From an uncultured Acidobacteriota bacterium (GTDB lineage: Bacteria; Acidobacteriota; Thermoanaerobaculia; Multivoradales; SZUA-115): DNA of 64,000 nt. A program made the translations under genes and the position numbers. Under the pieces are notes generated by a model, which was given only the letters and a program-made list of their open reading frames with translations, searched no databases and was not told the origin of the DNA. The DNA is taken from assembly GCA_963805975.1 (NCBI GenBank), contig CAWDVR010000002.1, positions 672,001 to 736,000 of the forward strand, read 5' to 3'. Of this stretch, positions 17,297-30,261 are shown in pieces. Every line of letters begins with the position of its first letter. The first letter of the stretch is position 1.

Positions 17297-17626
17297 CTAT
17301 TCCGCGAACATCTCGGCCAGGATGGCCAGGATCTTCTTCTGGGTCGGAGCGCCGAGGCGACCGAGGCGGCGGACGAGCCGCGTCTTGTCGACGGTCCGTA
17401 GCTGGTCGAGCACGACCAGTCCTCCCTTATCGTCGAATGAGCAGCGCACGCGTGTTGGATACATCCGGCCGCGCGAGGTCATCGGCGCCACGATGACCGT
17501 GGCGATGTGCCGGTTCATCTCGTCCGGGGAAACTACCAGGCAGGGGTGGGTCTTCTGGATCTCGCTCCCTACCGTAGGGTCGAGGTTGACCAGAAATACC
17601 TCGAACCGCTCTACCTCCACTGCCAC
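17297..17626 (-). CDS. mazF: MazF/PemK toxin
   Basis: LDPTVGSEIQK.HPCLVVSP, DQLRTVDK. Confidence 0.93.
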   Translation of the reverse strand: MAVEVERFEVFLVNLDPTVGSEIQKTHPCLVVSPDEMNRHIATVIVAPMTSRGRMYPTRVRCSFDDKGGLVVLDQLRTVDKTRLVRRLGRLGAPTQKKILAILAEMFAE

Positions 17627-17871
17627 TCTTGATCCTCGAAGCTCGTCGGCGCCGGCTCATCGAGCAACCGGTCGTCGCCGCGCTCCGCCATGCTGCGAAA
17701 CTGCGCGTCCCAGTGCTGGCGGGGCCGATCCGCCGCGCGGATCACCAGATGATCCTCCTCGACCTGGATCTCGATCTCCCGTACCAGCCCGACTTGCTCG
17801 ATCATCGGCTTGGGAAGCCGAAGGCCCCGGGAGTTGCCGATCGAGATCAGTTGTGTTCTGACGGTGCTCAT
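17611..17871 (-). CDS. mazE: AbrB/MazE antitoxin
   Basis: IGNSRGLRLPK AbrB motif; upstream operator TGATCACTC-N8-GAGTGATCA (17871-17896). Confidence 0.9.
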   Translation of the reverse strand: MSTVRTQLISIGNSRGLRLPKPMIEQVGLVREIEIQVEEDHLVIRAADRPRQHWDAQFRSMAERGDDRLLDEPAPTSFEDQEWQWR

Positions 17872-17952
17872 GATCACTCCTCTTCGAGAGTGATCACATT
17901 GTAGGTACGACGAGGCTCTCCGTCAAGCCTTTTCGGCGCGCTCCTTCGCGGT

Positions 17953-19331: not shown

Positions 19332-20831
19332 ATGCCCCATCTCGGCATCGTCGATCTCGGCTCGAACAACGCCCGCATGGTGGTCTACGAGTACGAGCCC
19401 GGGCGCTGGTTCCGGCTGGTGGACGTGATCCGCGAGCCGGTGCGCCTGGGTGAGGGCCTGGGGGCCACCGGGGAGATGACCGGGGCGGCCATCCAGCGCG
19501 GCCTCGCGGCGCTCGACCTCTTCGTGGACTACGCCGCCGCCGCCGGCCTCGACCACCTGGAGACGATCGGCACCAGCGCGCTCCGCGACGCCGCCAACCG
19601 CGCCAGCTTCCGCCGCGCCGTGGCGCCGCTGGGGGTCGAGGTGAAGGTGCTCTCCGGCGAGGAGGAGGCACGGCGTGGCCTGTCCGCGGTGGCCAACGGC
19701 TTCGACCTCGAAGACGCCTGGGTGATGGACCTGGGCGGCGGCAGTGCGCAGATCTCCCGCATGCTGGGCAGGAGGTACGCCGACGGCGCCTCCTACCCGC
19801 TGGGCGGCGTGCGCCTCACCGAGGCGTTCCTGCGCAGCGATCCACCACGCCGCGCCGAGGTCAAGGCGCTGGAAGCCGAGGTCGCCCACCATCTGGGGCC
19901 GGCGGCCAAGTCCATGGCGAGGGCGCCGGCGCCGCTGGTGGTGATGGGCGGCACGATCCGCAATCTCGCCCGCATGATGCAGCGGAAGAAGGCCTATCCT
20001 CTCGACCTGCTGCACGGCTATTTCCTGTCGCGCGCCGAGCTGGAGGAGGCCACCGGCATCCTGCTCGCCAAGACCTCCCGCCAGCGGCGGCGGGTGCCGG
20101 GCATCAACGAGGACCGCGCGGACGTGGTGCTGGCCGGCGCCCTGGTGTATCGCTGGCTGGTCCGGGCGAGCGGCACGGCCGGTGTCTTCATTTCCGGCCA
20201 CGGAGTGCGCGAAGGCACCTTCTATCGCCACTTCTTGAAGGCGCCCTACCGCATCCGGAACGTGCGGGCCTTCTCGGTGGCCAACCTCTCGGCCCGCTTC
20301 GGGCTCGCCTCGCCGCACATCGACCACGTGCGGCGCCTGGCGCGCCGGTTGTTCGACGGGCTGGCGCCCATCCACGGCCTGGGCCCGCGCGAGGCCGAGC
20401 TGCTCGACGCTGCCGCGGCGCTCCACGACATCGGGATCAGCGTCGACTTCTACCGCCACCACCGGCACGGCGCCTATGTGCTCGAATCCGATCCCCTCCC
20501 CGGCTTCAGCCACCGCGAGCACGCCCTGCTGATGCTCCTGGTGCGCTATCACCACGGCGGCCTGCCGAGCCTCGAGCCCTACCAGCGCCTGATGGCGGCG
20601 GGCGACAAGCGCATCCTGGCGCGCCTTGCCGCCTGCCTGCGGCTCGCCGAGTCCCTCGAGCGCTCCCGCGCGCGCCGGGTCAAGGACGTGGCGGTCGAAA
20701 TGAGCCAGCGCACGGTCACGCTCCGCCTCAAGGCCCGCGAGGAGCCGGCCGTCGAGATCTGGGAGACGGCCCAGCACGCGGATCTGTTCGAGCTGGCCTT
20801 CGGCAGGCGGCTCGAGCTGGCGAGGGGCTGA
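19332..20831 (+). CDS. ppx: Exopolyphosphatase Ppx/GppA with HD domain
   Basis: DLGSN, DLGGGS, GVREG, LHDIG. Confidence 0.93.
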   Translation: MPHLGIVDLGSNNARMVVYEYEPGRWFRLVDVIREPVRLGEGLGATGEMTGAAIQRGLAALDLFVDYAAAAGLDHLETIGTSALRDAANRASFRRAVAPLGVEVKVLSGEEEARRGLSAVANGFDLEDAWVMDLGGGSAQISRMLGRRYADGASYPLGGVRLTEAFLRSDPPRRAEVKALEAEVAHHLGPAAKSMARAPAPLVVMGGTIRNLARMMQRKKAYPLDLLHGYFLSRAELEEATGILLAKTSRQRRRVPGINEDRADVVLAGALVYRWLVRASGTAGVFISGHGVREGTFYRHFLKAPYRIRNVRAFSVANLSARFGLASPHIDHVRRLARRLFDGLAPIHGLGPREAELLDAAAALHDIGISVDFYRHHRHGAYVLESDPLPGFSHREHALLMLLVRYHHGGLPSLEPYQRLMAAGDKRILARLAACLRLAESLERSRARRVKDVAVEMSQRTVTLRLKAREEPAVEIWETAQHADLFELAFGRRLELARG

Positions 20832-20837
20832 GAACGC

Positions 20838-21347
20838 CTACGCTTCGAGGCCCAGGTTCTCCAGCAGCCTGGGAACCACCAGCCAGAGCAACTTCCCCCG
20901 CCCCGGGGCCACCTCGGCCCAGCTCTCGATGTCGAGCTCGATGGCTGCCACCGCTGCCGTCGTCATGCGGACCGTGCCGCCGCCGATGAGGAGGCTCGCG
21001 AGGCTCGACCACGTGGGTTCGTGGCCCGCGAGCAGCACGGTTTGCGCCGCGGCGGGCTGGAGCTGCAACAGGGTCAGCACCGCCGCCGGCGTGGTCTCGT
21101 AGAGGTCCGGCGTGATCTCGACCTTGGACGCCCACCGGCCGGCCGCCGCGCCCAGCTCGACCGTGGTGCGGGCGCGCACTGCCGAGGAGGTGAGGGCCAG
21201 GTCGGGCACGGCACCGGCCCGCGCGAGAAAGGAGCCGACGACCGCCGCGGCTTTCCGCCCACGCTTGTTGAGCGGCCGCTCGTGGTCGCCCCCGGCGGGC
21301 GCGTCCCAGTCGGACTTGGCGTGGCGCAGCAGGAGAAGAGTTCGCAT
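20838..21347 (-). CDS. sixA: SixA-like phosphohistidine phosphatase
   Basis: LLRHAKS, DHERPL, GHEP. Confidence 0.88.
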   Translation of the reverse strand: MRTLLLLRHAKSDWDAPAGGDHERPLNKRGRKAAAVVGSFLARAGAVPDLALTSSAVRARTTVELGAAAGRWASKVEITPDLYETTPAAVLTLLQLQPAAAQTVLLAGHEPTWSSLASLLIGGGTVRMTTAAVAAIELDIESWAEVAPGRGKLLWLVVPRLLENLGLEA

Positions 21348-21409
21348 GACGTCACCATATCGTGATGCTCACGGCGTGTCCCTGCCGGCGGTTTTGCTAG
21401 TCTCGGCGG

Positions 21410-23599
21410 GTGAGTGAAGCCCTCCGCACGACCGATTTGAGGCTGGCCGAGCCACCGCCCGCGGTTCCCGAGCCGCCCGCCGTCGGGCTGGACGACCCGG
21501 CGCTCGACGACCCGGGCCTCTACTTCAACCGCGAGCTCTCCTGGCTCAAGTTCAACGAGCGGGTGCTCGAAGAGGCTCTCGACGAGAAGAACCCCCTGCT
21601 CGAGCGGGTGAACTTCCTGTCGATCTTCGGCAGCAACCTCGACGAGTTCTTCATGATCCGCGTCTCCGGCCTCAGGCGCCAGATGGCGACCGGAGTGGTC
21701 GGCGCGCCGCCGGACGGCATGACCCCCACCGAGCAGCTCGCCGCCATCCGCCAGCAGCTCATGCCGGTGCTCGAGACCAGCAGCCAGTGCTGGAAGAGCG
21801 ACCTCGAGCCCAAGCTGCGCGAGGCCGGGATCAAGATCTTCTCCTACGACCAGCTCAAGGGCCGCCAGCGCCGGTTGCTCCGGCTCCATTTCAAGTCCGA
21901 GATCTTCCCCGTGCTGACTCCTCTGGCCTTCGACCCGGGGCACCCGTTCCCCCACATCTCCAACCTGTCGATGAACCTCGCGGTGGTGGTGCAGGACCCG
22001 GTCGAGGGCGAGAAGTTCGCGCGTCTCAGGGTGCCGCAGACGGTACCGCGCCTGCTGCGCATCCCGGAGGAGGAGAAAGCCGACTCCTACGAGAAGCTGG
22101 GCCTGGCGGCGGTCAAGACGCCCTACTTCATCTGGGTCGAGGAGGTGATCGCCGCCAACCTCGATCTGCTCTTCCCGGGCCTCTCGGTGATCGCGGCCCA
22201 TCCCTTCCGCGTCACTCGGGACGCCGACCTCGAGATCGAGGAGGACGAGGCGAGCGACCTCCTGAAGGCGATGTCGGACGTCGTGGGGCAACGCCACTTC
22301 GGCTCGGCGGTGCGGCTCGAGATCGACGAGACCATGCCGCCCAGGATCCGCGACATCCTGACCCGCAACCTCGAGCTGGCGCCGTTCCAGGTCTTCATCA
22401 CCGCCAAGCCGATCGGCCTGGCCGACCTCTCGCAGCTCACCGGCATCGAGCGCCCGGCGCTCAAATACCCGCCGTTCCTGCCCCAGGTGCCGCCGGGCCT
22501 GGGCAGCGAGGACGACGTCTTCGCCACCTTGAAGCGGCGCGGCAACGTCCTCCTCTACCATCCGTACGACAGCTTCTCGCCGGTCGTCACCCTGCTCCAG
22601 CAGGCGGCCCGCGACCCCAACGTGCTGGCCATCAAGCAGACGCTCTACCGCGTGGGGCCCAACTCGCCGATCGTCAAGGCGCTGATGGAAGCGCGGGAGA
22701 ACGGCAAGCAGGTGTCGGCGCTGGTCGAGCTCAAGGCCCGCTTCGACGAAGAGAACAACATCGTCTGGGCGCGGGCCCTGGAACGCGCCGGCGTGCACGT
22801 GGTCTACGGCGTGATGGGGCTCAAGACCCACGCCAAGATCTGCCTGGTGGTGCGCCGCGAGCCCGGGGGGCTCCAGCGCTACGTGCATCTTTCGACCGGC
22901 AACTACAACCCGGCGACCTCCCGGATCTACACCGACTTCGGCTACTTCACCTGCGACCCCGGCGTGGCCGACGACGTCTCCGACCTGTTCAACGCGCTCA
23001 CCGGCTACTCACGGAAATCCGAGTACGGCAAGCTCCTGGTGGCGCCCTGGCAGATGCGCGAGGGCATTCTGGCCCGCATCGAGCGCGAGATCGCCGAGCA
23101 CCGGGCCCACGGCGGCGGCGTCATCGCCTTCAAGATGAACGCCCTGGTGGACCGCGCCTGCATCCAGGCTCTCTACCGGGCCTCGCAGGCCGGGGTGAAG
23201 ATCGAGCTCCAGGTGCGGGGGATCTGCTGCCTGCGGCCCGGCGTGCCGGGAGTCTCGGAGAACATCCGGGTGACCTCGATCGTCGGCCGCTTCCTCGAGC
23301 ACAGCCGCGTCTTCTACTTCCGGAACGGCGGCAAGGAGGAGGTCTTCGCCGGCAGTGCCGACCTGATGCCACGCAATCTCGTGGGCCGCGTGGAAGTGCT
23401 GTTCCCGGTCGAGGACCCGCGCCTGCGCTCGGCGCTGGTGGACGGCATTCTCCCCCTGCACCTCGCCGACACCAAGAAGGCGCGCCTCATCCTGCCGGAC
23501 GGCGCCAACTCCCGGGTGACCCCGGCCGAGGGCGAGCCGCCCATGAGCTCGCAGGACTGGCTGCTCGAGCGCGGCGGCGGTTGGCGGGCCGAGGAATAG
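21410..23599 (+). CDS. ppk1: Polyphosphate kinase 1
   Basis: NRELSWL, ELKARFDE, KTHAK, GRFLEHSR. Confidence 0.97.
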   Translation: MSEALRTTDLRLAEPPPAVPEPPAVGLDDPALDDPGLYFNRELSWLKFNERVLEEALDEKNPLLERVNFLSIFGSNLDEFFMIRVSGLRRQMATGVVGAPPDGMTPTEQLAAIRQQLMPVLETSSQCWKSDLEPKLREAGIKIFSYDQLKGRQRRLLRLHFKSEIFPVLTPLAFDPGHPFPHISNLSMNLAVVVQDPVEGEKFARLRVPQTVPRLLRIPEEEKADSYEKLGLAAVKTPYFIWVEEVIAANLDLLFPGLSVIAAHPFRVTRDADLEIEEDEASDLLKAMSDVVGQRHFGSAVRLEIDETMPPRIRDILTRNLELAPFQVFITAKPIGLADLSQLTGIERPALKYPPFLPQVPPGLGSEDDVFATLKRRGNVLLYHPYDSFSPVVTLLQQAARDPNVLAIKQTLYRVGPNSPIVKALMEARENGKQVSALVELKARFDEENNIVWARALERAGVHVVYGVMGLKTHAKICLVVRREPGGLQRYVHLSTGNYNPATSRIYTDFGYFTCDPGVADDVSDLFNALTGYSRKSEYGKLLVAPWQMREGILARIEREIAEHRAHGGGVIAFKMNALVDRACIQALYRASQAGVKIELQVRGICCLRPGVPGVSENIRVTSIVGRFLEHSRVFYFRNGGKEEVFAGSADLMPRNLVGRVEVLFPVEDPRLRSALVDGILPLHLADTKKARLILPDGANSRVTPAEGEPPMSSQDWLLERGGGWRAEE

Positions 23600-23606
23600 G
23601 CTCTCT

Positions 23607-24867
23607 GTGCGGTCGGGGCCGGCCTGGGAGCCTCTGAAAAAGCTGCTCTTCCGCTTCGCTTTCGTGTATTGGTTCCTGTACTGCTTTCCGTTCCCTCTTT
23701 CCTACATCCCCGACGTCTACACGTGGCACTTGCGGCTGTGGAACGCGCTCGTGCCCTCGGTCGCGAAGCATGTCTTCGGCGTGGGCACCACCTCCTATGG
23801 CGGCGGAGACTCGACCTACGCCTTCGTCCAGATCTTCTGCTGCCTGGTGATCTCCATCGCGGCCGCGCTGATCTGGACCCTCCTGGACCGGAAGCGGAGC
23901 AACTACGCGCGGCTCTACGAGTGGCTGAGGGTCTACGTCCGCTTCATGCTCGCCGTGACCATCATCGAGTACGCGTCCTGGAAGGTCGTTCCAACGCAGT
24001 TCCCCGCACCGACGACGGACCGCCTGATGCAGCCCTTCGGGGACGCCTCGCCCATGGGGCTGCTGTGGACGTTCATGGGCGCGTCCGTGCCCTACACCGT
24101 CTTCGCCGGCCTGAGCGAGCTGGTCGGCGGGCTGCTCCTGACCGTCCGCCGGACCACCCTGCTCGGCGCACTGGTCACGATCGGCGTCATGAGCAACGTC
24201 GTGATGCTCAACTTCAGCTATGACGTGCCGATCAAGCTCTTCTCCACGCACCTGCTGCTGATGGCGGTCTTCCTGGCGGCTCACGACCTGCGGCGCCTCG
24301 CCAACCTGCTCGTGCTCAACCGCCCGACCGAGCCCGAGGAGGTCCGCCCACTCTTCCGGAGGAGATGGCTCGCCCGCACCGCGACGGGCTTCACGGCCGT
24401 GCTTCATCCTCTTCATGACCGGCATGCTGCTGCACAAGTCCTACCGGGACTTCGAGCAGTACGGCAGCGAGGCGGCGGCCAAGTCGCCGTTCTATGGGAT
24501 GTGGAACGTCGAGGAGCTCGTGGTCGACGGCGAGGTCAGGCCGCCGTGGGTCACGGACGAGACGCGATGGCGGCGGATGTTTTTCAACACGCTCGACCGG
24601 TGCACGATCCAGCTCATGAGCGACTCGCGCGAGCGCTACGACCTCGAGCACGACGAGACGAAGAGGACGCTGGTCCTCAGCAAGCGCACCGACCCCGACT
24701 GGAAGACAACTCTCGTCTACAGCTTGTTGCAGCCGGACGTTCTCTACGTGGAGGGGTCGTTCGACGGGCAGAACGTCCGAGCGCGGCTCCGTCGGACCGA
24801 GCCTCCCGAGTTCCTGCTCGTCACCCGCGGCTTCCACCTGATCAACGATCGCCCGCTCAACCGCTGA
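23607..24867 (+). pseudogene. DoxX-like integral membrane protein, frameshifted near 24402
   Basis: SPMGLLWTFMG, NFSYDVPIK; continues in another frame (FILFMTG...RGFHLINDRPLNR) after about 24402. Confidence 0.75.
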
Positions 24868-24969
24868 GAACCCCCGACTCAAGGCTGCCTCACCGTCGCA
24901 AAGAGGCTTCGACTTGGTGATCGGCTCGGCAGCGAAGGGTGACCCGCTAGCCGTACTCTCGTCGCCGCG

Positions 24970-24997
24970 TTGACTCCTATTGAAGCAGGCGTAAAAT
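24970..24997 (+). promoter_or_regulatory. Sigma70-like promoter for SLATT gene
   Basis: TTGACT-16nt-TAAAAT. Confidence 0.6.
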
Positions 24998-25059
24998 GCT
25001 GCCAACTACTGACATCCGAAAGCGCTTCGAGTGGGCAGCGCCCAACAAGGGGACTTCTC

Positions 25060-25593
25060 ATGGCTGACGAAAAGCGCGTGTTTACCCCTCCTGGGACGGA
25101 CCAGCTTCTCACCGGCTGGCTCATTCATTCCCACAAGGCCCGGGACAGGCATGACGAGGCAGCCCGCAGATATGCGAAGGGGCAATTTGCCTTGGGAATT
25201 CCTTCACTCATTGTTTCTACTGTCGTTGGAACGTCAGTCTTTGCGGCACTGTCCTCCAAGGAGGTTCCACCGCTGTGGGTAGGCCTGCTGAGCATCCTTG
25301 CTGCCGTGTTAGCAGCGCTGCAAACGTTTATGGACTTCGGAGGTCGATCCGACAAACATCGGAACGCAGCTGTCAAGTACAAGTCGTCCATCCGCCTGCT
25401 CGAGGAATCAATAGTTCAACAGAAGCAGGGGACAGCACTTACCAAAGAAGAGATCGCGGCCATAAGAACAGCGCTGGACAGCCTGGAAGAAACTGCTCCT
25501 GTGGTCATGCCAAGGATCTATGTCAACGTGGAGAAAAAATATCAAGACATGAAGTATGTTTCCGAAGCGATTGGTCTATACAGCAAGCAGTAG
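25060..25593 (+). CDS. SLATT-domain 2TM protein
   Basis: H..AARRY..LGIPS.IVS..VGT, second TM LAAVLAALQTF, H..AA..Y; visibly lower GC than flanks. Confidence 0.8.
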   Translation: MADEKRVFTPPGTDQLLTGWLIHSHKARDRHDEAARRYAKGQFALGIPSLIVSTVVGTSVFAALSSKEVPPLWVGLLSILAAVLAALQTFMDFGGRSDKHRNAAVKYKSSIRLLEESIVQQKQGTALTKEEIAAIRTALDSLEETAPVVMPRIYVNVEKKYQDMKYVSEAIGLYSKQ

Positions 25594-25654
25594 GTATCTC
25601 CTTGATGCGACGGCGCACGTTGGCGCGCTGTCCGCGGTTCGGCACTGAGAGGTC

Positions 25655-26395
25655 TCACACCTTCCGCTTCACTTCCTTCCACAGGCTCTCATACGCCTGC
25701 CCCGCGACGCTCGAGGGCGCGTAGGCCGTGATCGGCTGCTGGCGCAGGCCCATCCCTTCGACCAGGCTCGAGTACGGGACCTGGGTCTTGAGCAGCGGGT
25801 AGGGAGACTGCTTCACGAGCCATTGCGGCTCCCGGTGCATGAGCTTGCGCCGGTCGACCAGCGAGAGGAAGGGGAGCACCTTGAGGTCCCTGGGGCCCTT
25901 CTCGTCGAGGTGCTGGTGGAGCTGCTGCAGGGCGCGCAGGGAGAGCGGCGTGGGGATGGTGGGCACGATCAGCGCGTCGGCGAGCGCGAACAGCGACTCC
26001 GAGAGCACCGAGAGGCTCGGCGGGCAGTCGAGGAAGAGGTAGTCGTAGGTTTCGACCAGCGGCCCGATGAGGCGCGCGAGCTGCTGGCTCGGCCGCTTGG
26101 TCTCGGCGAGCGCCAGATCCAGCTTGCGGTAGGAGAAGTCGGCCGGCAGGAGGTCCAAACCCTCGAAGTCGGTGCCGCGTACCAGATCGTCGAGCTCCTT
26201 CTTGCCTTCGATCAGCTTGCGGCCACCGCCCGGGACCTTGGGCTCGACGCGGAAATAGAAAGAGGCGGCGCCCTGCGGGTCGAGGTCCCAGAGCAGCGTG
26301 CGCCCGCCGGCGCGGGCCGCGAGATAGGCCAGGTTCACTGCCGTCGCGGTTTTGCCGACCCCACCTTTGATGTTGTAAGCCGCAAGCACTTTCAT
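25655..26395 (-). CDS. ParA/Soj family ATPase (orphan)
   Basis: KGGVGKT, DLDPQG, DCPPS. Confidence 0.9.
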   Translation of the reverse strand: MKVLAAYNIKGGVGKTATAVNLAYLAARAGGRTLLWDLDPQGAASFYFRVEPKVPGGGRKLIEGKKELDDLVRGTDFEGLDLLPADFSYRKLDLALAETKRPSQQLARLIGPLVETYDYLFLDCPPSLSVLSESLFALADALIVPTIPTPLSLRALQQLHQHLDEKGPRDLKVLPFLSLVDRRKLMHREPQWLVKQSPYPLLKTQVPYSSLVEGMGLRQQPITAYAPSSVAGQAYESLWKEVKRKV

Positions 26396-28044
26396 GGCGA
26401 CACCTCGATGTCAGAGGAGGGGGGGCTGAAGAGACGACGGACCCGCTCCTGGTTGTCCCGCCGGAGAAACGCTCGCAAGGCACCGGCAAACCGCTCTCCC
26501 TCGCGGGCGCGGTGCTCGTCCAGTCGTGCGACCACATACCCGGTGGCGGCGAGCGCCGACGTACCCACCTCGACCGCTGCCCGGCGCAGGGCCTGCTCCT
26601 GATTCACCAGGTCGTTCAAGCTCCCCAGCACGTTCTGAAGACCCTTCAGCGCCTCCAGCAGCCGGTCGATCTCCGCTCGAGGAAAGAGAGAACGGAAGAA
26701 CTCCAACAGATACCGCAATTTCTTGCAAGCGATCCGCAGGGCGTGGAGGGCCGCCGGCTCAGGGTCGGGCCCCAGGGCCTCGGCGCGCTCGACCACCCGC
26801 CGGGCGGCTTTGCCGAGGCGCTCGGAGGCGACTTCGCGAATCGGCCGGCGGGCCGCGGCAGGCTGCCGCGAGGCCTGGGCGCGGCGCTCGAGAAAACCGT
26901 CCAATGCTTCCATCGTCTGCTGGTAACGACTGGAAGCAAAGGACTTGACGATCTCTTTCTGCGCCTCCCGTGCCGCCTGGACAAGCTGTGCCTCGACCGG
27001 CACAAAGCCCTCCCGGACCCAGGACGGCAGGGGATCGAGGAGGTCCGGCAGGCTCTCGAGAAGGACGTCCAGGTCCCGCTTGGGGCCGGTCTGCTGCCCG
27101 AGCCAGGCGAGCTCGGAGCGGAGTGCCTCCACCTCGCGCCGGGGGAACAGGCCCCGGAGCTGGCCCAGGGCGGACCGCAGCCGCCGCAAGGCCACGCGGT
27201 AGTCGTGCAGGAACTCGCGATCGAGCTCCGCCACCACGCCCTGCTCGTTGGCGCGGAGGGTGGCACGGAGCGGGCGCAGGATGGCGAGGGCCGCGGCGCC
27301 GGCGGCCTCCTCGGGATCGAGATCGAGGCCAGGCTTCAGGGAACGCCGGTCGAGCCAGGAACCGGCGGCGGTCAGCGCGTCGGCCAGCTCGTCCTCGAGC
27401 GCCTCGGCGGGCCGGCCCAGCCGGACTTCGAGAGCCTCCACCACCGGGTGGCAGGCAGCGGCATAGCCGCGCAGCGGCTCGATGCGCAGGCGCCGCTGCA
27501 GATCCCTGGAACCCAGCGCTCCGCTCGGCACCACCCGGCGATCGACCAGCGTGAGGTAGCCGATCTTCTTGGCAGGTCGAAGCCGTGTGCTCAGAAGCTT
27601 CGAGGCGAGGCTTGAGGTTCGGGATCTCCTGCCGCCGGCAGAAGCTGCCGGTCCCGAGGCCGGGGCCTGGTACAGCGGCCGGATCTCGAGACGCTTCTCG
27701 ATGGTCACCGCCGGTAGCAGCCGGCGGGCTCCTATCGTCTCGGCCACCACGTCCCGCAGGCGGCCCGCGGGCAGGTTGGCGGCGAAGTCCAGCGTCTCGG
27801 GAAGCGGCAGCTTTCCCCGCAACTGGCCCGCCAGCGTCAGGAGCTGGAGCTCCCGCCGGCCCTCTGAAACCAGGCCACGCAGGCAGAGACCTTCCTGCCA
27901 CAGAAGGCCGTCGAAGGTGTCGTAGAGGGTGAGGTGAGCGCTACCGCTGCGCCGCCGGCCGAGCGGCAGCCCTTCGATGAGCGCGAGCCAGCCTTCACCC
28001 GCGGCCCGCTCGGCGGGAAGTGGAAAGGAGAAGACACCATGCAT
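26392..28044 (-). CDS. CHAD-domain protein with CYTH-like N-terminal region
   Basis: YDTFD; LHDYRVALRRLRS, RDLDV, LHALRIACKKLRY, LQ..LG..ND; start uncertain (28044 or 28071). Confidence 0.88.
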   Translation of the reverse strand: MHGVFSFPLPAERAAGEGWLALIEGLPLGRRRSGSAHLTLYDTFDGLLWQEGLCLRGLVSEGRRELQLLTLAGQLRGKLPLPETLDFAANLPAGRLRDVVAETIGARRLLPAVTIEKRLEIRPLYQAPASGPAASAGGRRSRTSSLASKLLSTRLRPAKKIGYLTLVDRRVVPSGALGSRDLQRRLRIEPLRGYAAACHPVVEALEVRLGRPAEALEDELADALTAAGSWLDRRSLKPGLDLDPEEAAGAAALAILRPLRATLRANEQGVVAELDREFLHDYRVALRRLRSALGQLRGLFPRREVEALRSELAWLGQQTGPKRDLDVLLESLPDLLDPLPSWVREGFVPVEAQLVQAAREAQKEIVKSFASSRYQQTMEALDGFLERRAQASRQPAAARRPIREVASERLGKAARRVVERAEALGPDPEPAALHALRIACKKLRYLLEFFRSLFPRAEIDRLLEALKGLQNVLGSLNDLVNQEQALRRAAVEVGTSALAATGYVVARLDEHRAREGERFAGALRAFLRRDNQERVRRLFSPPSSDIEVSP

Positions 28045-28135
28045 GGGAGGGGAGGTCCGATCCGGCAGCATCCTACCCGAACGACAGCAAGGAGCCTGCC
28101 CGAGGGGCGCAGGCCCGCATGCTAGATTGCGCGCC

Positions 28136-29434: not shown

Positions 29435-29827
29435 ATGAGCGAGGCGATGCTCGAAGCCGCAAGGGCCCTGGCTGCCGACCCGCGGGTCCTCGCGGTCTAT
29501 GCGTTCGGATCCCAGGCCCGCGGCGTTGCACGACCTCACAGCGACCTCGATCTGGCCGTCCTTCTCGATCGGTCTGTCAGCCTGCGCGAGGAGCTGGCAC
29601 TGCGCGCCGAGGTCGTGGACGCTCTCCATCGCGACGACATCGACCTGGTGGTCCTGAACCTCGCTCCACCGCTGCTGCGCTACGAGGTGATCTCGGCAGG
29701 CTCGCGGCTCTACTGCCGATCCGCCCTGGAGGCCGATCACTTCGAGGAGAAGTCTCTGCGCGAGTATCTCGACACCGCTCACCTGCGCCGCGTCCAACAG
29801 GATCTCGCCCGACAGGCCGCAGCATGA
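29435..29827 (+). CDS. mntA: MNT antitoxin (type VII TA)
   Basis: FGSQARG....SDLDLAV (GSx10DxD). Confidence 0.88.
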   Translation: MSEAMLEAARALAADPRVLAVYAFGSQARGVARPHSDLDLAVLLDRSVSLREELALRAEVVDALHRDDIDLVVLNLAPPLLRYEVISAGSRLYCRSALEADHFEEKSLREYLDTAHLRRVQQDLARQAAA

Positions 29828-30261
29828 CCTTGCGACCGGCGGTGGTGCGCGAGCGGCTCCGTAAGCTGCGGGAGGTGGTGCGCAATCTCGAGAGCCTTCA
29901 GAGCATCGAGCGCGCCGATTTCACCGTCTCTTTTCGCCACTACTGGCTGGCCGAACGCGGCCTGCAGCTCGCCGCCGAGTGCCTGCTCGATATCGGCAAC
30001 CATATTCTCGCGGGACAGTTCAACGTCCACCCGAGCGACTACGAGGACGTGGTTCGCAAGCTGGCCGAGCATCGGGTCGTGTCCGAGGAGCTGCGGCAGG
30101 ATCTGCGCGGCCTGGGCGGCTTCCGCAACCTCCTCGTCCACGAGTACCAGGACATCGACCTCGACCGAGTGTACGACTACCTGCAAACCGGCCTTGGGAG
30201 CTTCAAGGCTTTCGCCGAGGAGATCGAGGCTTTCCTGGAGCGCTCGCCAGACAGCGATTAG
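29824..30261 (+). CDS. hepT: HEPN/DUF86 RNase toxin
   Basis: GFRNLLVHEY (Rx4HxY); ATGA overlap with mntA. Confidence 0.9.
   Translation: MTLRPAVVRERLRKLREVVRNLESLQSIERADFTVSFRHYWLAERGLQLAAECLLDIGNHILAGQFNVHPSDYEDVVRKLAEHRVVSEELRQDLRGLGGFRNLLVHEYQDIDLDRVYDYLQTGLGSFKAFAEEIEAFLERSPDSD

Follow-up and report, generated by a model that had tools for sequence, protein, structure and literature searches.

A ParA-type ATPase tied to one CHAD subtype as a candidate positioner of polyphosphate granules

What does a ParA-type ATPase do beside genes of polyphosphate (polyP) metabolism when no parB adjoins it? We addressed this question at a locus of an uncultured Acidobacteriota bacterium, within a stretch of 64,000 nucleotides (contig CAWDVR010000002.1, positions 672,001 to 736,000; hereafter the window). 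There, a gene for a CYTH-like and CHAD protein (positions 26392-28071, minus strand; 559 amino acids; PF05235 at residues 263-496, E 3e-58) precedes parA (25655-26395, minus strand; an orphan ParA-type ATPase of 246 amino acids; AAA_31, E 6e-33). A preliminary description of the locus had proposed that the CHAD protein is the adaptor that lets this ParA space polyP granules, with a basic insert of the CHAD protein as the ATPase-activating peptide. We found that this ParA is part of a distinct clade, and that the clade goes with a single CHAD subtype. A functional tie of the pair to polyP granules is very likely when the three readings weighed below (granule positioning, control of polyP turnover or granule assembly, and activation of the ATPase by polyP itself) are taken jointly.

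The subtype was defined as a CYTH-like barrel without the catalytic motif, plus a CHAD domain. Among 61 genomes of the organism's own order, ParA was present in all 21 that encode the full-length subtype, in none of the 24 whose CHADs are short or of another type, and in none of the 14 without a CHAD match; G004 and G018 carry diverged copies of both proteins. As ppk1 was found in 56 of these 61 genomes, the CHAD-ParA module is optional, most ppk1-bearing genomes being without it. The 250 Gammaproteobacteria scored gave the same pattern: ParA was found in 21 of 24 genomes carrying the full subtype, compared with 4 of the 35 that have a different CHAD and 7 of the 191 that have no match. Both genes can also be present though unlinked, on separate contigs in G012, G040, and G178 and 6 kb apart in G058; in G012 and G040, the lone CHAD gene lies within a ppk1-sixA-ppx cluster. 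The preliminary description had called for a check of the linkage between this ParA clade and CHAD, and the linkage proved strong in both directions and across phyla.

Gene order points the same way. CHAD lies directly upstream of parA at 14/14 GTDB pattern hits (11 of them close Vicinamibacterales kin), 18/22 own-order loci, 9/11 own-phylum loci (3 repeat the own-order sample), 24/30 Gammaproteobacteria loci (from a search in which 32 of 251 genomes matched and 30 loci were compared), 7/14 loci of the phylum Actinomycetota, 48 of the 63 metagenome loci with at least 400 bases upstream (58/79 overall, one of 80 omitted), and both of the Paracoccus plasmids read. A conserved adjoining gene for a putative cargo-binding partner, as in McdAB-type systems, is present with these exceptions. 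In the window, the CHAD stop codon TGA and the parA start codon ATG overlap as ATGA (26392-26395, minus strand), which suggests translational coupling. Four-base gene overlaps are frequent in bacterial operons; what exceeds chance is rather the retention of the -4 overlap across pairs, in 43 of 61 genome-derived adjacent CHAD-parA pairs, 12 of the 61 being close kin. Inter-protein covariation over the 61 paired rows (effective number of sequences 44), with kinship uncontrolled and the top pairs at variable columns, reached a best Z of 8.5, compared with 6.2-7.5 in 8 shuffles.

In a tree of 88 ParA rows computed by a quick method (genome loci, plasmid loci, 9 fusion proteins, and 7 Soj-like outgroups, with metagenome loci omitted), the clade separates from the Soj-like outgroups at a Shimodaira-Hasegawa-like approximate likelihood ratio of 100, and phyla are interleaved within it. 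At least 7,941 of the 7,997 proteins scored match the window ParA at E 1e-40 or better. Two neighborhoods deserve separate mention. On the Marinobacter nauticus plasmid pMAQU02 (L088), a deep-branching ParA gene is divergent from pyruvate kinase, acetyl-CoA hydrolase, and phbB genes, neighbors that hint at another cargo, such as polyhydroxyalkanoate granules. In several metagenome loci related to an actinobacterial subclade, parA is abutted by an aminotransferase-like gene, a label taken from reading the open reading frame (ORF).

The window ParA looks enzymatically active as an ATPase. Its KGGVGKT, DxDPQ, and Walker B motifs are intact, and K10, K15, T16, D37, D39, and D123 are invariant in 61/61 ParA rows. 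The fold is Soj-like, with a TM score of 0.89 to chromosomal ParA/Soj of Myxococcus xanthus (PDB 8ray), and the nearest folds are Soj/ParA. The protein thus combines the deviant Walker A (KGGxGKT), DxD sensor, Walker B, and ParA fold of McdAB-type ATPases. The C-terminal membrane helix is missing: the chain ends 7 residues past W239, and the clade median is 9.5 residues after W239. Against the NCBIfam equivalog families, the ParA falls under every cut-off. We rejected MinD/FlhG (TIGR01968, 36 bits against a cut-off of 213, and no C-terminal amphipathic helix) and BcsQ, a name used by some sources (TIGR03371, 62 bits against 157.85). ParABS partition was also rejected, as no parB adjoins the gene and the residues that accept the ParB arginine are replaced. 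A profile search of the genome found ParB_N matches on contigs C5 and C1 only, each adjoining its own parA, and none on C2, the contig of the window; the earlier statement that the window is without parB therefore holds. The genome carries a single CHAD gene by tblastn and profile search. It also encodes another orphan ParA without an adjoining parB (G000:C1, 706433-707245).

What would the CHAD protein contribute? Its predicted structure (AF2, from the 61-row alignment; predicted local distance difference test [pLDDT] score 91.5) contains a beta-rich N-terminal domain and the CHAD domain, and the best Foldseek match is the CtCHAD-polyP structure of Chlorobium tepidum (6qva, E 4e-14), followed by Escherichia coli YgiF (5a60) and triphosphate tunnel metalloenzyme (TTM) barrels. 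We assigned the N-terminal domain, which the preliminary description had overlooked, to CYTH/TTM on its fold and on Atlas features (CYTH clusters at 0.94 for residues 10-250); Pfam did not detect a CYTH-like domain there, and the CHAD alignment, compared as a profile with a stand-alone CYTH sequence, gave no match. The architecture, a CYTH/TTM barrel plus CHAD, is that of YgiF and NeuTTM (NE1496), from which the window barrel differs in the loss of ExExK, the catalytic, metal-binding motif of CYTH proteins. ExExK is present in NE1496 and in 6 of 23 other CHAD-bearing frames; because it is missing from all 61 alignment rows, the barrel is predicted to be catalytically inactive. The conserved barrel residues are D51, D54, R116, K168, and G202-Y203.

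The CHAD domain itself resembles a protein of measured function. CtCHAD (6qva, 3e0s) scores 313 bits on the subtype profile, and other CHADs score at most 171; this measured polyP binder (PMC6537752) therefore belongs to the subtype of the window CHAD. The polyP-binding residues mutated in CtCHAD, H253, R256, R260, R296, R418, and Y419 (PMC6537752), align with H289, R292, R296, R332, R453, and Y454 of the window protein, so that all six are kept. The protein has the CHAD fold with conserved polyP-pore residues that marks a CHAD phosin, and its pore probably binds polyP as CtCHAD does. The likeness may extend further, as about 207 N-terminal residues of CtCHAD were omitted from the crystal construct; the text of PMC6537752 describes no ParA link. 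In the texts of PMC13556221 and PMC6537752, the in vivo localization of CHAD proteins to polyP granules is cited for Ralstonia eutropha proteins only.

If the ATPase is active, how would it be triggered? The activating arginine of ParB contacts Y81, E82, D110, and E117 of M. xanthus ParA, whose DNA binding is abolished by R238E (bioRxiv 10.1101/2025.03.14.642875; arginine-finger background in PMC9178275 and PMC11229316). We mapped these residues by alignment to 8ray, deriving the numbering offset from D60A. The window ParA, 27-30% identical to the M. xanthus protein and without its adjoining parB, has R59, K60, S88, and A95 at the four acceptor positions and L211 (25763-25765, minus strand) in place of R238. 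R59-K60 (26216-26221, minus strand) thus makes basic what is Y81-E82 in M. xanthus. Position 59 is K/R in 51/61 rows and Y/F in none, with Y in 6 of 7 Soj-like controls; position 88 is acidic in 0/61, with D in 6/7 controls; position 211 is K/R in 1/61, with R in 7/7. The beta2-beta3 insert (residues 47-66), named as the ParA partner surface in section 10 of a 2026 ParA survey (bioRxiv 10.64898/2026.10.19.760177), has a median net charge of +7 and is positive in 61/61 rows, against -2 to +3 in the 7 controls; over a wider set (115 of 141 representatives, selected by length), the median is +4, and 99/115 are positive. Because the acceptor residues are replaced and the site is basic, a ParB-like basic peptide should be unable to act on this ParA in the usual manner.

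The matrix-binding surface is mixed, without a membrane helix, with R183 kept and the R238-equivalent lost. The basic DRRK patch pointed out in the preliminary description is indeed present (residues 181-184; 25844-25855, minus strand) and holds the conserved Soj arginine R183, as in M. xanthus, within a larger RRKxxHR stretch (D181 to R188; 25832-25855, minus strand); it is not accompanied by the tested DNA-binding arginine, given the single K/R among 61 rows at position 211. R183, common to Soj, is found in 57/61 rows, and H187, found in 61/61 against 0/7 Soj-like controls, is clade-specific; R90 and R154 are likewise invariant in 61/61.

These surfaces bear directly on the basic insert. The stretch in question (CHAD residues 146-169; 27565-27636, minus strand) lies in the CYTH-like domain, within a loop insertion of 29 residues that is specific to the genus. 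It is basic and predicted flexible (loop pLDDT about 55 in the AF2 model, a low confidence), and known ParA/MinD adaptors do have basic disordered peptides (PMC10241942). The interval 129-168, however, comprises 39 residues in the window protein and 10 in 59/60 homologs, which retain the same ParA pairing; the remaining homolog, from the same genus, has 40 residues there of unlike sequence. Because 59/60 homologs lack the insert and the same-genus version differs, it cannot, on this comparison, be a conserved activator, and the acidic site that would receive such a peptide is gone from ParA. That the insert activates the ATPase is thus exceedingly improbable.

Several arrangements direct attention to the barrel instead. 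Among the best 120 longer homologs (P0123-P0242), 80 are ParA proteins with a C-terminal CYTH fusion, with an ExExK-like motif intact in some and degenerate in others. Where CHAD is not adjoining, stand-alone CYTH genes follow parA (L034, L035), and such neighbors match NE1496 (E 1e-16). On Paracoccus plasmids, the order is CHAD-parA-CYTH-NUDIX. Because three separate arrangements link ParA to CYTH folds, we infer that the CYTH-like barrel is the best candidate for the ParA contact. Apparent CHAD-ParA fusions (about 19 of the best 120 longer homologs) were set aside as evidence, as most lack the CHAD end or have an out-of-frame joint; L013 displays the frameshift directly, and the status of P0148 is uncertain.

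We give a probability of about 0.45 to the reading that this ParA positions or organizes polyP granules by way of the CYTH-like domain while binding the nucleoid weakly. CHAD and ParA would then make up a machine of two proteins dedicated to this task: the CHAD domain would coat polyP granules, and ParA, through ATP cycling, would space the granules or hand them down. The dead CYTH-like barrel, possibly with bound polyP, would be recognized by ParA; the R182-R183-K184-H187-R188 patch would give ATP-bound ParA dimers a weak hold on the nucleoid; and release of ParA beside granules would produce McdAB-like spacing. Such a ParA would respond to an acidic or polyanionic trigger rather than to a basic peptide. 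The adaptor role first proposed for CHAD thus survives in part, backed by the linkage and the retained polyP-binding residues, and the basic-insert mechanism attached to it falls away. The ParA might instead switch polyP turnover or granule assembly in an ATP-dependent manner, loading or releasing the CYTH-CHAD coat or gating the access of CYTH triphosphatases, Ppx, or Ppk1, with no nucleoid gradient. The loss of the R238-equivalent, the repeated fusions to CYTH domains keeping an ExExK-like motif and to HAD phosphatases, the CYTH, NUDIX, SixA, and Ppx neighbors, and the ParA-family switches and chaperones of other settings (bioRxiv 10.64898/2026.10.19.760177, section 12) all fit such a switch. 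Three observations fit it poorly: the nearest folds are Soj/ParA, R183 and a larger basic patch are kept on the DNA-facing side, and the main partner's CYTH-like domain, without the catalytic motif in any of 61 rows, suits an adaptor. We consider the switch doubtful. Alternatively, polyP itself could be the activator or matrix of ParA, replacing the peptide finger or DNA: polyP chains, presented by the CHAD protein, would bind directly to the basic partner surface and to the RRKxxHR patch. The positive 47-66 loop, the invariant R90, R154, and H187, the replaced Y/E/D/E acceptors, and the carriers without the CHAD subtype, one of them directly behind ppk1 (L062), agree with this idea. Yet MinD also lacks the ParB pocket and has a protein activator (bioRxiv 10.1101/2025.03.14.642875), and basic loops may serve to contact an acidic protein patch, or DNA in a different mode; we regard direct activation by polyP as unlikely. 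A combined form, in which this widespread clade positions polyP granules and is switched by polyP itself, the cargo replacing the arginine-finger peptide and perhaps DNA, is suggested because the peptide-receiving site is charge-reversed, and seems to us equally improbable. Finally, the adjacency could be incidental and the ParA could serve an unrelated cargo, as the solo ParA copies in several lineages might indicate; against this stand the reciprocal co-occurrence, which includes unlinked genomes, the conserved -4 overlap, and the CYTH fusions. Incidental adjacency is largely refuted for the linked majority and is very improbable overall.

A number of results weigh against granule positioning. 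At position 211, K/R was found in 1/116 of the wider rows and D/E in 54/116, which weakens the nucleoid step, and ParA fusions to SBP (SBP_bac_3) or HAD phosphatase domains also occur. The N-terminus of the CHAD partner is not basic (median K+R of 0 before position 30, some alignment starts being uncertain), and the basic, disordered N-terminal activating peptide of McdAB-type partners is lacking. Three of the 24 full-subtype Gammaproteobacteria are without ParA (G281, G160 [a recheck agrees], and G100; 21/23 have it when G100 is excluded). CHAD does not adjoin parA in 15 of the 63 metagenome loci, and six actinobacterial loci (L093, L096, L097, L099, L100, L102) form a ParA subclade without adjoining CHAD, with distant CHADs elsewhere. 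CHAD was not found in G110, G259, G285, and G462, genomes whose completeness is not established, nor near the ParA copies on Marinobacter and Pontibacter plasmids. The linkage counts overstate independence, owing to kin and to searches seeded with linked members, which favor linked matches; the subtype profile was likewise partly built from ParA-adjacent CHADs (12/21 in the own order, 6/24 in Gammaproteobacteria). According to the text of PMC6537752, Ralstonia and E. coli strains with CHAD genes deleted had no apparent phenotype. AlgP of Pseudomonas aeruginosa has been linked to even polyP granule spacing on the nucleoid (PMC9239181) and differs from the pair in being a histone-like tether, not an ATPase system. 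In Synechococcus elongatus, an organism without another ParA, polyP spacing is McdAB-independent (PMC13556221, 2026). In favor of positioning, on the other hand, even granule spacing exists and lacks a known ATPase (PMC13052382, PMC13556221); a 2025 review lists AlgP as the sole polyP positioner in its text and asks whether ATP is used (PMC13052382). As an aside on such tethers, the CHAD protein of L079 (G037) has a lysine-rich, histone-H1-like C-terminal tail recalling AlgP-type proteins, and the ParA P0250 has a similar tail.

How does the pair compare with described systems? McdA-McdB likewise combines an orphan ParA-type ATPase without a membrane helix with an adjacent gene for a cargo-binding protein, and the body that it positions has no membrane and lies in the nucleoid region (PMC10241942, PMC13052382, PMC13556221). 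The window ParA lies in a different clade (McdA E 2e-11), its partner is a 500-aa CYTH-like and CHAD protein without a basic N-terminal peptide, the partner surface of the ATPase is basic, and the cargo would be an inorganic polymer. The layout is McdAB-like but fails in one defining feature, and the pair may be a variant of ParA cargo systems, known so far from sequence. Within the literature covered (openly available main texts), the only trace of a ParA-type polyP positioner or a ParA-CHAD function is a passing mention of a conserved folD-ppk-parA-CHAD cluster in Acidithiobacillus, in which the function of parA is not given (PMC10892726); the likeness is one of gene names. The main text of the 2026 ParA survey (bioRxiv 10.64898/2026.10.19.760177) contains neither "CHAD" nor "CYTH"; its figures or supplements may include the clade. 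New here are the reciprocal subtype profile, the refutation of the insert as activator, and the finding, residue by residue, that the arginine-acceptor and R238 sites are lost.

The surrounding genes were located as follows. The ppx/gppA exopolyphosphatase gene (19332-20831, plus strand; Ppx-GppA, E 2e-46), a sixA-like phosphohistidine phosphatase gene (20838-21347, minus strand; TIGR00249, 57 bits, E 2e-15, under the 74.5 cut-off), and ppk1 for polyphosphate kinase 1 (21410-23599, plus strand; four PP_kinase families) were confirmed near the CHAD-parA pair, along with the ATGA overlap, at the coordinates first reported. The end of the locus was less secure: there is an in-frame ATG at 28044, a possible start that had been given as the limit of the locus, and the frame opens earlier, at 28071. 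Because ppk1 and CHAD-parA are convergent, with 2 kb of unrelated DNA between them, ppx/sixA/ppk1 and CHAD-parA are not one operon. In five related genomes (L068, L069, L071, L073, L074), ppk1 directly faces parA, and at other loci a sixA-like gene directly follows parA. No sigma-70-like promoter was found for CHAD-parA; the sole match (24970-24997, plus strand) precedes the SLATT gene of the spacer. No phage matches were found at E 1e-30, nor any RNA holder.

Two genes occupy the spacer, a frameshifted one for a membrane protein and one of the SLATT_4 family. The former (23607-24867, plus strand; no Pfam match) is split over two frames near 24410; a C3 paralog with a 440-aa frame spans both halves, so that the window copy is frameshifted or misassembled. 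The latter (25060-25593, plus strand), of the two-helix effector type, has a guanine-plus-cytosine content of 0.53 against about 0.69 around it and the promoter-like match noted above. Because it is missing between ppk1 and parA in a same-genus genome, it is likely a recent insertion. Elsewhere in the window, a PemK/MazF-like toxin gene (17297-17626) with a small upstream ORF (together 17297-17904, minus strand), between mdh-like and icd genes, is likely a toxin-antitoxin pair. Two short overlapping ORFs at 29435-30261 (plus strand; 130 aa and the end of a 281-aa frame) resemble a nucleotidyltransferase-HEPN toxin-antitoxin pair.

For the placement and inheritance of bacterial polyP granules, the CHAD-ParA pair supplies an ATPase and a partner that can both be named, a structurally characterized relative in CtCHAD, and cultured carriers in the form of Paracoccus plasmids, and direct experiments on granule placement therefore come within reach. 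Given its charge-reversed partner site, this ParA is predicted to be activated by a mechanism unlike those of ParB, McdB, and MinE. If granule positioning by this ParA is borne out, CHAD proteins would gain a function.

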